Sequence record: PP391266.1
Reading direction: 5' to 3' (one strand)
From: Escherichia phage PJNS034
DNA: 64,000 nucleotides
Shown: piece after piece, positions 4,423-35,588 of the stretch
Layout of the letters: each line of letters starts with the position of its first letter
How positions within the stretch are numbered: the stretch's first letter is position 1
Position numbers and translations under genes: made by a program
Notes under the pieces: model-generated
What the model was told of the DNA's origin: nothing
Database searches by the model: none
Seen by the model: only the letters and a program-made list of their open reading frames with translations

Positions 4423-4500
4423 CTTGATGTAGCTCAGTTTGGTAGCAGCACTTGCTTTGGGAGCAAGGGGTCGAAGGTTCGAATCCTTCCATCAAGACCA
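4423..4500 (+). tRNA. tRNA-Pro (anticodon TGG), CCA encoded
   Basis: Hand-folded cloverleaf: acceptor cttgatg/catcaag, anticodon stem cttgc/gcaag with loop tttggga, T-arm gaagg-ttcgaat-ccttc; D-stem only 3 bp. Confidence 0.7.
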
Positions 4501-4501
4501 A

Positions 4502-4583
4502 GTGGGATTGGCTGAGTGGTCGAAAGCACCTGACTGTAAATCAGGCATATCACGCGGTGGTTCGAATCCATCATCCCACACCA
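4502..4583 (+). tRNA. tRNA-Tyr (anticodon GTA), CCA encoded
   Basis: Acceptor gtgggat/atcccac, anticodon stem cctga/tcagg with loop ctgtaaa, extended variable region, T-arm ggtgg-ttcgaat-ccatc. Confidence 0.65.
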
Positions 4584-4585
4584 AA

Positions 4586-4662
4586 GCGTCACTAACTCAA
4601 TTGGTTAGAGTAGCGGTCTTTTAAACCGCAGGTTCTGAGTTCGAGTCTCAGGTGGCGTACCA
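4586..4662 (+). tRNA. tRNA-Lys (anticodon TTT), CCA encoded
   Basis: Acceptor gcgtcac/gtggcgt (two G-U pairs), D-arm actc...gagt, anticodon stem gcggt/accgc with loop cttttaa, T-arm ctgag-ttcgagt-ctcag. Confidence 0.8.
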
Positions 4663-4664
4663 AA

Positions 4665-4754
4665 GGAAGTTAGGGCTTTGTGGAAAGCAATCGGTCTTGA
4701 AAACCGACCCACTGTAGCGATATGGTGATGGTTCGACTCCATTAGCTTCCTCCA
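4665..4754 (+). tRNA. tRNA-Ser (anticodon TGA), type II, CCA encoded
   Basis: Acceptor ggaagtt/agcttcc, anticodon stem tcggt/accga with loop cttgaaa, long variable arm, T-loop ttcgact. Confidence 0.75.
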
Positions 4755-4756
4755 AT

Positions 4757-4833
4757 TGTTTCGTAGCTCAGTTGGTAAGAGCGTTCGGCTGATAACCGAA
4801 AGGTCACAAGTTCGAGTCTTGTCGAAACAACCA
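4757..4833 (+). tRNA. tRNA-Ile (anticodon GAT), CCA encoded
   Basis: Canonical cloverleaf: acceptor tgtttcg/cgaaaca, D-arm gctc-agttggtaa-gagc, anticodon stem ttcgg/ccgaa with loop ctgataa, T-arm acaag-ttcgagt-cttgt. Confidence 0.85.
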
Positions 4834-4836
4834 AAT

Positions 4837-4925
4837 GACGGGTTGGCAGAGTTGGTTTATTGCAGCAGCTTGCTAAGTTGCCGAGTCGAAAGGCTCCGTG
4901 GGTTCGAATCCCACACCCGACGCCA
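4837..4925 (+). tRNA. tRNA-Ser (anticodon GCT), type II, CCA encoded
   Basis: Anticodon stem gcagc/gttgc with loop ttgctaa, 16-nt variable arm, T-arm gtggg-ttcgaat-cccac; acceptor has one A-A mismatch as read. Confidence 0.6.
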
Positions 4926-4926
4926 A

Positions 4927-5002
4927 GGACGATAAGCACATGTGGATGTGCGGCAGGCTGTTAACCTGATGGCAGTTGGTTCGAATCCAACATCGTCCGC
5001 CA
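4927..5002 (+). tRNA. tRNA-Asn (anticodon GTT), CCA encoded
   Basis: Acceptor ggacgat/atcgtcc, D-arm gcac...gtgc, anticodon loop ctgttaa, T-arm gttgg-ttcgaat-ccaac. Confidence 0.75.
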
Positions 5003-5004
5003 AT

Positions 5005-5079
5005 AGCGAGATAGTTCAGTGGTAGAATATCGGTTTCATACGCCGACCGTCGATGGTTCGATTCCATCTCTCGCTACCA
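5005..5079 (+). tRNA. tRNA with CAT anticodon (elongator Met or Ile2 type), CCA encoded
   Basis: Acceptor agcgaga/tctcgct fully paired at 1:72 (not initiator-like), anticodon stem tcggt/gccga with loop ttcatac, T-arm gatgg-ttcgatt-ccatc. Confidence 0.75.
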
Positions 5080-5095
5080 AACCTCTTTATCCGAT

Positions 5096-5167
5096 GGGAG
5101 TGTCCTTCTGGGAAGGATGTGGATTCCAACCCCACTAAGTAGAGTTCGATTCTTTACACTCCCGCCA
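5096..5167 (+). tRNA. tRNA-like, possibly tRNA-Gly (anticodon TCC), CCA encoded
   Basis: Acceptor gggagtg/cactccc and T-arm tagag-ttcgatt-cttta fold well; D-loop very short and one mismatch in the anticodon stem. Confidence 0.45.
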
Positions 5168-5174
5168 AATCCCT

Positions 5175-5251
5175 AGCCTTGTAGTGTAGTCTGGTTAGCA
5201 CACGTGACTTTGACTCACGGAGCTTAGGTTCGAATCCTGACAGGGCTGCCA
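5175..5251 (+). tRNA. tRNA-Gln (anticodon TTG), CCA encoded
   Basis: Acceptor agccttg/cagggct, D-arm gtgt...gcac, anticodon stem cgtga/tcacg with loop ctttgac, T-arm ttagg-ttcgaat-cctga. Confidence 0.8.
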
Positions 5252-33214: not shown

Positions 33215-33478
33215 TTAGATTTCATCCCACCAGTTTACACCCATCTCACTAAAAGGTACACCCGACATTGAGGGATTGTTGACGTACTGTTTGTACGCTT
33301 TCAAAGCTCGCTTACGCCATTTCAGTTTGTAACCGTAACGTTGCAAGTTGTCTGCTGCATTACTCTCATCCAGTGAGAATGCGATGATTGCTTTCACTTG
33401 GTTAAGGATATGAGGTGATGCCCAGAATTTCTGAGCTTCGGGAGTTTCAATTGGAAAGTTGAGAATGGTCTTTGCCAT
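33215..33478 (-). CDS. hypothetical protein (87 aa)
   Basis: ORF-track ORF in structural block. Confidence 0.3.
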   Translation of the reverse strand: MAKTILNFPIETPEAQKFWASPHILNQVKAIIAFSLDESNAADNLQRYGYKLKWRKRALKAYKQYVNNPSMSGVPFSEMGVNWWDEI

Positions 33479-33816
33479 ACAAACCTCATAAACGAAAAAA
33501 GGGAGGCGGAGAGATTAACCCTCCAACCTCCCATTCAGGTTGTTACTCCTATTAACTCCATAGAGTTATTTAAGAGCTTCTTAGTGTGAAACCACACACT
33601 TACTTGACTCTACCGACCCATGCAGAGGTGCGGAGGCTACGAAATGAACCGTACCTACGCGGTTGTCGATAAGAGTATCCTGTAGTGTCTCTAATGACTC
33701 GTCTCGAATAAGACTCCCATCAAGGAACCACTGGAAAGTAGAACGCTTATCTACTACTCCTGTTAGCTGCCAGTTCTCCCCTTCCGTTGCTTTCAACGTT
33801 GGAGGAAGGTCGGTTA

Positions 33817-34278
33817 CTACATTACCGCTTCAAGGTCTTCCGCAGGGATTACATTCACTCGGCTACCACCAGTAGGGCCGGTAGTCCACTCGCTACCATC
33901 AACGGTAACTTTAAAACCAATACGACCACCGCCACCCGCTGTAACACCAGTTAGGTCACAAGACTTACCATCAGCAGATTGTTTGAAAGTGAAGCTTCCT
34001 TCTTGCCCAGAGTCATAAGTAGCGAACCACTCATACACAGCAGAATCAGGAAGAGTACCACCAGAAATAACCACTTTGTCAGTTTTAGTCTCACCTACTT
34101 TGAGGTCTTGACCAATACCATCAGTATCAATTGAAATGTCTAACACTTCAACTTCGATTGAATCTTTCTTAGTTGCATCACTCACAGACTCTACAGTAAT
34201 AGTGCTGGTGCCCTTATCGACACCAGTCACTTCAAGAGCCTGAGTAGCGAGAGCAGCTTTAGCTTGACGCTTCGCCAT
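33817..34278 (-). CDS. Ig-like domain protein (153 aa), possible capsid decoration
   Basis: Ig-like beta-rich sequence (GTSTITVESVSD...KVTVDGSEW); own ATG with AAGAGGA upstream. Confidence 0.45.
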   Translation of the reverse strand: MAKRQAKAALATQALEVTGVDKGTSTITVESVSDATKKDSIEVEVLDISIDTDGIGQDLKVGETKTDKVVISGGTLPDSAVYEWFATYDSGQEGSFTFKQSADGKSCDLTGVTAGGGGRIGFKVTVDGSEWTTGPTGGSRVNVIPAEDLEAVM

Positions 34279-34290
34279 TCACGATTCCTC

Positions 34291-34692
34291 TTATGCTACA
34301 GTTGCAGCAGCAGGGTCGCTAGAGGTTGCTTTAATTTCCTGAGGAGCACCATCTGGAGAGACAGTTACTGACAGAGGAAGTTTAGCACCCTTCTTAACGT
34401 ACCGCTTTTTTGCACCGGCTATTGCCACACTTTCTACGGCTGGTTGTTCGTCGTTGACTACCACAGTTGCTGCATTGGTAGGAGTAGTACCAACTTTGTT
34501 AGTAAACTCGGCTACATACGAACCTGCATCTTCTTTCTGAGCATTAGCTTTGGTGAAAGATGGAGAGGTTGCACCTTCGATTGCAGCCCCATCCTTTTTC
34601 CACTGCACGGAGTCAAAGTTCTCCGCAGCAGCAGTTAAGGTAAAACTACCGCCAACAACGACGGTAGCATTACTTGGATGGGTTAGGATTTT
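34291..34692 (-). CDS. Ig-like C-terminal extension of major capsid protein reached by predicted -1 frameshift
   Basis: Frame -1 relative to capsid ORF stays open from the slippery site and encodes [27 protein letters not shown]...VTVSPDGA. Confidence 0.5.
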
Positions 34693-35588
34693 GGGGCAGT
34701 ATCTCCACCCGCTTTAGCAGTAATCATAGCCGCTGCTTTAGGGTTGTTCAGACGCAGACCAACTTCCTGCTCAATCATGAACTTCTCAGCAGAACCAGAT
34801 TTCGCCAGAGCTACTTTCTTAGGAGCACGCAGTACAGCCATACCGAGGTCAGATGGGTTGAAGATGTAGATAACATCTTTCGGCATCCAACGGTTAGGAA
34901 TGCACTTCAGTTCCTGGCCCAGCGGGTCAACGATGTACTCAACCTGCTTAACAAAGCGTTTGTCGTTCTCGAAGATACGCATACGAGTACCAGACTTCTC
35001 TTGCAGTGAAGCGAAGAAGTCAGCTTTGCTTGGGTGGTACATGATGATGCTTGGGTCAGCACCTTCGGTGTACAGCAGAGCAGTAGTTTCGAACAGCAGT
35101 TCTTCTTTCAGCTCGCCAGTTTTCTTCATGGTTGCATCAATCATCGTACCGAAAGAAGCAGTCAGACGAGCAGTACCAGCAGCACCCGGAGTTGCTTTCT
35201 GGTCAGCCAACAGGAAGATACCTTCGTTGTCACGCTTCAGCTCTTTAGCAGCTTTCTTCAGTTGATAGAACAGCTCTTTCTCACGACCATGAGAACTAAC
35301 GGCGTTAGCAGAGTCAGATACGAACACAACTTTACGCATAATCTGAGTGTAGTTCTGAACCACAGTGGTTGGGGTCAGGTCTACGTCTTCAGCATCAGAT
35401 GCTTCAGCGAATGCGTTGCCGGTGTTGATATCACTCAGCTTATCCCACTGCCACTGGAACATAGTGTTGTGAACAGGGAATTTGCGAATCATGGAAATCA
35501 GCGGAGTGTATTCAGGAGAGATGTTGCTGACCCAATCAGCAAAGTCTTCCTTGATGCCAGCCATCTTGTAAGTCTGGTAAGTTGCCAT
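34683..35588 (-). CDS. major capsid protein
   Basis: Follows scaffold in terminase-portal-scaffold-capsid order; [13 protein letters not shown] resembles T7 gp10 LTAGGAGTAREGT as recalled. Confidence 0.65.
34689..34695 (-). other. candidate -1 programmed frameshift slippery heptamer CCCAAAA
   Basis: X_XXY_YYZ heptamer two codons before capsid stop; hairpin ctaccg...cggtag ~21 nt downstream. Confidence 0.5.

Follow-up and report, generated by a model that had tools for sequence, protein, structure and literature searches.

Immediately downstream of the major capsid protein gene of Escherichia phage PJNS034 (PP391266.1) lies a coding region for an immunoglobulin-like (Ig-like) domain that is out of frame with the capsid gene, and the present analysis concerns its likely expression as a frameshifted extension of the capsid protein. 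The stretch analysed, hereafter the window, comprises 64,000 nucleotides (nt); coordinates refer to this window, and all elements of the capsid and extension locus lie on its minus strand. The core of the locus consists of the following features.

34683..35588, minus strand: major capsid protein gene, encoding 301 amino acids (aa) in the short form; Pfam SU10_MCP, E = 4.6e-69
34689..34695, minus strand: slippery heptamer C_CCA_AAA, whose X_XXY_YYZ phasing agrees with the capsid open reading frame (ORF)
34291..34689, minus strand: −1 frame extension, 132 codons followed by the stop TAA at 34293..34291
34453..34689, minus strand: Ig domain of the I-set/Ig_2/Ig_3 type, extension residues 1–79
34294..34437, minus strand: Big_2 domain, first half only (extension residues 85–132), ended by the stop codon

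The capsid protein has the same sequence as WWV91989.1 of Escherichia phage PJNS034 and also matches the PHROG family phrog_1328, major head protein. In the zero frame, the 3' end of its gene reads GCC CCA AAA TCC TAA, with the stop codon at 34685..34683. The heptamer CCCAAAA, which an earlier sequence-only reading of this DNA had placed at the end of the capsid gene, is indeed present at 34695..34689 and is correctly phased (index 893 in the coding sequence; 893 mod 3 = 2). It is the sole canonical heptamer in the 30-nt stretch over which both the zero and the −1 frames are open. Across the long ORFs of the window, in-phase slippery heptamers occur 13 times in 16,747 codons, and the one in the capsid gene is alone among the 13 in falling within the final ten codons of an ORF. 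A control based on the length of the −1 frame past the stop of every gene was uninformative, because overlaps between adjoining genes are common in that frame.

The −1 frame stays open between 34713 and 34291, and a fusion produced through it would measure 432 aa, compared with 301 aa for the short form. The same reading had this frame open from the heptamer onward, and this was borne out by the 132 post-slip codons that precede the stop at 34293..34291. Over the same 129 codons, the other two frames contain 7 and 9 stops in the window and the −1 frame none. The Pfam profiles Ig_3, Ig_2 and I-set match the extension from residue 1–2 to about residue 78 (E 1e-6 to 1e-5), placing the start of the Ig domain at the first residue after the slip. 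AlphaFold2 (AF2) predicts a confident beta-sandwich, with predicted local distance difference test (pLDDT) values of 93–96 across the domain and 94 over extension residues 1–10, and PHROG families described as 'Hoc-like head decoration' also match the extension. An Ig-like domain of about 130 aa had been proposed; its Ig content was recovered, whereas its extent resolves into a single Ig domain of about 80 aa followed by about 48 aa that make up half of a Big_2 domain, its first; the extension ends in ...AAATVA.

Relatives were collected through a nucleotide search, which returned Serratia phage KSP100 (82.7% identity) and Pantoea phage TacPo2, and through exact-protein look-ups, which returned ten Logan metagenome contigs (L029, L031–L037, L039 and L040) plus an anomalous one, L038. 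KSP100, TacPo2 and the ten contigs constitute the twelve clade relatives referred to below, with L038 kept apart. A search of IMG/VR with the capsid protein alone yielded no relatives, and an alignment-based search succeeded. The gene order portal, scaffold, capsid and adaptor makes the window syntenic with KSP100, TacPo2 and the Logan contigs, in which SU10_portal and SU10_adaptor are present. The Ig ORF lies in the −1 frame, close against the capsid stop, in 12/12 clade relatives, and all twelve have a slip motif at the same Lys codon, 0–1 codon from the stop. The capsid genes end as follows.

Window: C_CCA_AAA TCC TAA
L039: C_CCA_AAA TCG TAA
L029: C_CCA_AAG TAA
L036 and L037: C_CCA_AAG TCG TAA
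L040: T_TTA_AAG TAA
KSP100 and L031–L034: A_GTA_AAG (TCG) TAA
TacPo2 and L035: G_GTA_AAG TAA

The P-site half of the motif is canonical in some clade members and non-canonical ([A/G]_GTA) in others. The conserved feature is therefore an A-site Lys codon preceded by A and located at most one codon from the stop. The use of C_CCA_AAA, C_CCA_AAG, T_TTA_AAG and the non-canonical [A/G]_GTA_AAG at one and the same Lys-codon position within a single clade reveals a flexible signal.

The substitution pattern is that of a coding sequence. Relative to KSP100 and TacPo2, the ratio of nonsynonymous to synonymous substitution rates (dN/dS) of the extension is 0.22–0.30 at a dS of 0.8–1.7, similar to the 0.15–0.32 of the capsid gene, a sign of purifying selection on the −1 frame; the other frames hold 7–11 stops. 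From 34713 onward, the −1 frame has no ATG, GTG or TTG until GTG 34608, a position within the Ig domain, and hence only a fusion gives the whole Ig domain. As a separate observation, the extension contains an in-phase A_AAA_AAG at 34405..34411 (minus strand), at the start of the half Big_2, which is shared with KSP100. This is the strongest slip motif of E. coli, and a −1 shift there would end after five codons. In contig L037, one extra A in this run truncates the extension ORF.

The arrangement is very probably to be explained by tandem −1 slippage of tRNA-Pro(UGG) and tRNA-Lys(UUU) on C_CCA_AAA, with a minor 432-aa capsid subunit as its predicted product. In this model, most ribosomes would end at the TAA at 34685..34683 and release the 301-aa capsid protein. 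A minority would slip back by one base, tRNA-Pro exchanging CCA for CCC and tRNA-Lys one AAA for another, and would then read ATC CTA ACC... as −1 frame codons; slippage may be aided by the stop codon close by. The resulting 432-aa product would carry the Ig domain and then the half Big_2 at its C-terminus and, by analogy with related phages, would co-assemble as a minor capsid subunit and show the Ig module on the head surface. Slippage at CCCAAAA in PJNS034 itself is what we infer from these data, whereas its frequency and the entry of the long form into virions would be expected from the behaviour of relatives, and the function of the displayed domain is likewise put forward by analogy. A cluster of ten tRNA genes at 4423..5251 (plus strand) includes tRNA-Pro(UGG) and tRNA-Lys(UUU), the decoders of the CCA and AAA codons of the slip site; the presence of both in the phage cluster may be a coincidence. 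Upstream Shine-Dalgarno-like stimulators were sought by eye, and the G-rich Gly codons seen there vary in spacing among the relatives, so that no such element is claimed.

Capsid frameshifting is already known in phiEco32-like phages, and PJNS034 represents an unannotated case with a different heptamer; the 432-aa fusion was not found in the protein collection searched. In Privateer, which uses GGGAAAG, two capsid bands were described, and mass spectrometry of virions detected the long form (PMC7881722). Short and long capsid isoforms, the latter adding Ig-like domains, were likewise reported for YF01 and the Kuravirus group (PMC9965538), and a slip site has been noted in SU10 (PMC4281155). 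The window resembles this group (phiEco32, SU10, YF01 and Privateer) in its SU10_MCP capsid, in a slip site a few codons from the stop and in a −1 ORF that encodes Ig-like domains, and the I-set plus Big_2 of Privateer aligns along its length with the region in the window. It differs in having C_CCA_AAA in place of G_GGA_AAG, in a capsid protein less than 50% identical, and in an extension that stops in the middle of Big_2, with the remainder in a separate cistron. In addition, a hairpin lies 6 nt downstream of the slip site in Privateer, compared with 15 nt in the window. The fusion of the capsid to an Ig-like domain by a −1 frameshift, as first put forward by the sequence-only reading, is thus sustained by the conservation of site and ORF, by purifying selection, by the lack of an upstream start and by this family precedent.

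Across the wider family (capsid identity below 50%), the Kuraviruses, Privateer and CsaP_009 combine GGGAAAG with a long −1 ORF, while LAh_6-like phages and three IMG/VR contigs combine GGTAAAG with one. Every surveyed locus of this wider family with a long −1 ORF adjoining the capsid stop has GGGAAAG or GGTAAAG at most 12 nt from the capsid stop. The Kuravirus and Privateer heptamer GGGAAAG is not matched in the window, which has CCCAAAA; the motif varies within the family (GGGAAAG, GGTAAAG, AGTAAAG, CCCAAAG and TTTAAAG), and GGGAAAG is therefore not a strict hallmark. Where a surveyed locus has no slip motif, the −1 ORF is missing too, and in most such cases there is a second capsid paralogue with an Ig-like extension fused in frame (GAP52-like and 7-11-like loci, L015, L019 and L041). 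Judging from these gene arrangements, gene duplication appears to replace frameshifting in loci without a slip site. Given two genetic routes to a capsid-plus-Ig subunit, the subunit itself can be argued to be selected; the flexibility of the slip site, taken with the duplicated capsid of lineages that lack one, argues for selection on an Ig-bearing subunit in sub-stoichiometric amount. Two tandem capsid genes, one of them with in-frame Ig-like or Big_2 domains, were observed in L006, L007, L015, L018, L019, L026 and L041.

More distant systems offer partial parallels. Genes 10A/10B of T7 and T3 also involve a −1 shift close to the 3' terminus of the major capsid gene that yields a minor, C-terminally extended subunit, and the papers on relatives of the window cite them as a model (PMC7881722, PMC9965538). 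The window capsid showed no Pfam or PHROG link to the T7 capsid family and is placed in SU10_MCP and phrog_1328. In T7, the slip sequence is different and the extension is short. The proposed mirroring of T7 10A/10B consequently holds as a mechanistic analogy and not as homology, the closest precedent being the frameshift of the phiEco32-like family itself. Ig-like domains appended C-terminally to virion proteins by programmed frameshift, and presumed to be surface-exposed, have been described more broadly (Fraser et al. 2006, as relayed in PMC9965538), and in that form represent a general pattern, not a defined family. The slip site also resembles those of dnaX, IS911 and IS3, with X_XXA_AAR-type or A_AAG motifs and tRNA-Lys(UUU). 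Those systems have a pseudoknot or hairpin a few nt downstream or an upstream Shine-Dalgarno-like element, whereas no such element was found at the usual spacing at the window site.

Several observations weigh against the proposed frameshift. GenBank gives two separate ORFs here (301 aa and a 105-aa hypothetical protein) without a fusion. In L038 (3380..3420), CCC replaces CCCC at the slip site, which changes the frame of the Ig ORF relative to the capsid ORF and lets the latter run four codons further; this homopolymer variant may be an assembly error or, alternatively, a genuine variant. Stimulators of −1 frameshifting usually lie 5–9 nt downstream and are common, not obligatory; no stimulatory structure was found at this spacing in the window, where the nearest helix starts 15 nt downstream, and L039, which has the exact heptamer of the window, showed no significant structure (z = +0.25). 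An A-site AAA is generally less shifty than AAG in E. coli (PMC4066793), and no long isoform of the SU10 capsid was seen with cryo-electron microscopy (cryo-EM) or sodium dodecyl sulfate–polyacrylamide gel electrophoresis (PMC9965538). SU10 carries a premature stop in the −1 frame (PMC9965538; PMC9509320), which accounts for the missing long form in its cryo-EM map. In favour of slippage, V_VV.A_AA.R heptamers, including the C_CC.A_AA.A of the window, belong to the most efficient class in E. coli, where A_AAG ranks first among tetramers for shifting and C_CC.A_AA.G first among heptamers (PMC4066793).

Three other accounts of the Ig ORF were weighed. It could be a gene in its own right, with translation beginning at GTG 34608 (GenBank WWV91988.1), beside a coincidental heptamer, as GenBank and automatic gene callers annotate it in PJNS034 and likewise in KSP100 and TacPo2. 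The starts annotated in KSP100, TacPo2 and PJNS034, however, all differ (GTG, TTG, GTG), and each of them cuts off the first Ig strands. The −1 frame is open and conserved over the 26 codons that separate the slip site from GTG 34608, the stretch TAAAEN shared with KSP100 differs by synonymous changes only, the interval from 34713 to 34608 contains no start codon, and an in-phase slip motif is found at the capsid stop in all relatives with the Ig ORF. We consider an independent gene very unlikely on these grounds. If slippage at the heptamer is accepted instead, the annotation of PJNS034, KSP100 and TacPo2 would be corrected, the 'hypothetical protein' past the capsid becoming the C-terminal portion of a minor isoform of the capsid protein.

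The ORF could also be an untranslated, decaying remnant of a former in-frame fusion between capsid and Ig domain. The region is in pieces, with a frame change, a stop inside Big_2 and another frame change leading to a second Ig-like −1 ORF, ext2 (described below), and the second of these junctions lacks its slippery Lys codon in the window. Decay is at odds with the dN/dS of 0.22–0.30 in the extension at dS up to 1.7, with values of 0.05–0.47 in the two Big_2 halves (except for one near-identical pair with too few changes) and 0.09–0.25 in ext2, and with a coding frame that holds 0 stops compared with 7–11 in the other frames. The same breaks, moreover, recur in relatives whose capsid is less than 50% identical, and little credence is due to this account. 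That the long form arises through slippage of RNA polymerase or heterogeneity of the C4A4 run, and not through the ribosome, would fit the homopolymer variants in the assemblies (CCC for CCCC in L038 and an extra A in L037). Most relatives, however, have GTAAAG, which is no homopolymer, and keep the same −1 ORF; runs of four C and four A are also far below the tract lengths known for productive transcriptional slippage, and this route seems hardly credible. Ribosomal slippage at C_CCA_AAA thus remains the preferred explanation.

Past the capsid stop, the transcript is predicted to fold into the following structure.

34640..34673, minus strand: stem-loop of 10 plus 4 base pairs with the loop UUGU, from the minimum free energy fold, followed by UUUUACCUU

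The sequence-only reading had described a perfect hairpin of 6 base pairs (ctaccg/cggtag) about 21 nt downstream of the heptamer. That pairing exists at 21 nt, with CTACCG at 34667..34662 and CGGTAG at 34651..34646, as the core of a larger helix whose base lies 15 nt 3' of the heptamer and 9 nt past the capsid stop codon. The 89-nt hairpin stretch is more stable than dinucleotide shuffles (z = −5.9), and less distinct from synonymous-codon shuffles of the same peptide (z = −1.5; 80/1000 shuffles equally stable). A stable hairpin occurs at the same place in each clade member but L039, with the sequence GCUACCGUCG...UGGCGGUAGU in the window, L029 and L036 and the unrelated GUGUCCCUGA...UUGGGGACAC in KSP100-like members. 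The two pair in shifted registers, with the helix base 12–15 nt past the slip motif. Across the clade hairpins, the synonymous-shuffle z ranges from −1.2 to −3.5, from sequences that are not independent. Consensus folding of three clade sequences gave almost no covariation, the hairpins occupying the same place in shifted register, and an Rfam scan of 33400..34900 at E ≤ 1 returned no match. The hairpin is real and probably selected; it may act as a frameshift stimulator, as a leaky terminator or as neither.

The role of this hairpin as a frameshift signal was not established: it is missing in L039, is followed by a U-rich tract and receives a terminator-like score. A tentative alternative is that it serves as a leaky intrinsic terminator or a stabiliser of the RNA 3' end after the capsid stop, which would raise capsid mRNA relative to the downstream genes and would be melted only by frameshifting or closely coupled ribosomes. 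Such a role would suit the terminator scan at 34645..34668 (minus strand), which found a terminator-like element of 10 pairs and then TTTTACCTT, the position of the helix base 15 nt from the heptamer but just 9 nt past the stop, the different hairpins with U-rich codons after them at the same place in relatives, and the presence of the same heptamer without a hairpin in L039. It sits less easily with the interruption of the U-tract, with the modest synonymous-shuffle significance (z −1.2 to −3.5, non-independent sequences) and with the near absence of covariation in the three-sequence alignment. In view of the long spacing, the UUUUACCUU after the stem and the terminator-like score, we treat the function of the hairpin as undecided.

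The extension ends within Big_2, and the rest of this domain is found in the next gene.

33817..34278, minus strand: next gene, encoding 153 aa and starting at an ATG with a GAGGA Shine-Dalgarno sequence of its own

The 153-aa protein, 100% identical to a protein of PJNS034, consists of a 13-aa leader, the second Big_2 half (about 34141..34239) and a further Ig-like domain. Big_2 was detected only when the end of the extension was concatenated with the N-terminus of this protein (31.4 bits, compared with a Pfam cut-off of 22.8), and both pieces align to the uninterrupted Big_2 of Privateer. The same split is seen in GAP52-like phages: in GAP52, the extended capsid paralogue reaches as far as position 46 of the Big_2 profile, and the protein that follows picks it up at position 45. 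L039 lacks Big_2, and its third domain continues the Ig extension within one covalent chain. Both halves are under purifying selection; within the overall range given above for the two, the first has a dN/dS of 0.05–0.37, and the 153-aa gene as a whole gives 0.11–0.36 in pairs with the window. The frame of the next gene relative to the extension is 0, 0, 2, 0, 0 and 1 in six relatives, and this variation identifies the 153-aa gene as a separate cistron. Readthrough, hopping or a third frameshift over the stop in Big_2 was considered and rejected, given the varying frame relation and two intervening stops in the window; the Shine-Dalgarno sequence and ATG that every copy of the next gene possesses also count against it. 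As a side observation, dS between the window and its relatives is 0.11–0.28 in the half-Big_2 segment, compared with 0.8–1.7 for the whole extension, which hints at recent recombination or at an extra nucleotide-level constraint.

When the extension and the 153-aa protein were modelled by AF2 as a single chain, the two Big_2 halves formed one domain (pLDDT 85–93), and the 13-aa leader alone was disordered. The concatenated model comprises three beta-sandwich domains in a Hoc-like string (mean pLDDT 88.9), and Foldseek returned RB49 Hoc among its best matches (E = 3e-11). Hoc of T4 and RB49 is a fibre of Ig domains. It exists as a free protein and attaches to the capsid via a dedicated domain, whereas the first module in the window would be covalently part of a capsid subunit. 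It is plausible that the Big_2 fold would be completed in trans by the extension and the 153-aa protein. We advance as a speculation, possible but unlikely, that the trans-completed Big_2 tethers a Hoc-like Ig string only to frameshifted capsid subunits, as a modular piece of fibre. If true, this would be a natural case of split-domain assembly on a capsid, in a coliphage that can be cultivated.

A second candidate −1 frameshift cassette follows the 153-aa gene, within a 'gap' of about 335 nt, and a further hairpin lies beyond it.

33581..33829, minus strand: ext2, an unannotated, conserved, Ig-like −1 ORF after the 153-aa gene, starting ..VTDLPPTLK
33507..33525, minus strand: terminator-like hairpin and T-run from the scan, closing the capsid and decoration unit

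The dN/dS of ext2 is 0.09–0.25 across pairs (0.10–0.12 in those with the window), compared with 1.25 and 3.09 in two control frames. Relatives reach it via G_GTA_AAA/G (NNN) TAA CC, a near-copy of the capsid-junction cassette GTA AAR (NNN) TAA CC, the arrangement being seen in L001, L029, L031, L035, L039, L040 and L041; the GAP52-like L041 reaches ext2 through an in-phase C_CCA_AAA. If borne out, this would provide a compact, portable 'frameshift plus Ig domain' cassette. The corresponding junction in the window, GTA ATG TAG, has no slippery Lys codon, and expression of ext2 in PJNS034 is doubtful for this reason. Pfam support for Ig was obtained in L040 only, where a longer ext2 contains two Ig domains. 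AF2 gave an all-beta model of moderate confidence (pLDDT about 55–73), which does not settle the fold. The possibility that the gap is a deletion remnant of the 364-aa gene of TacPo2 was rejected, since tblastn of the gap against the 364-aa protein found no homology.

Both shifts are chained in L039 (1506..3200), where the capsid gene with C_CCA_AAA is followed by the Ig and third domains, then by C_GTA_AAA TCG TAA and ext2; from this order of elements, three nested capsid products are predicted. Relatives also conserve the sequence that lies downstream of ext2.

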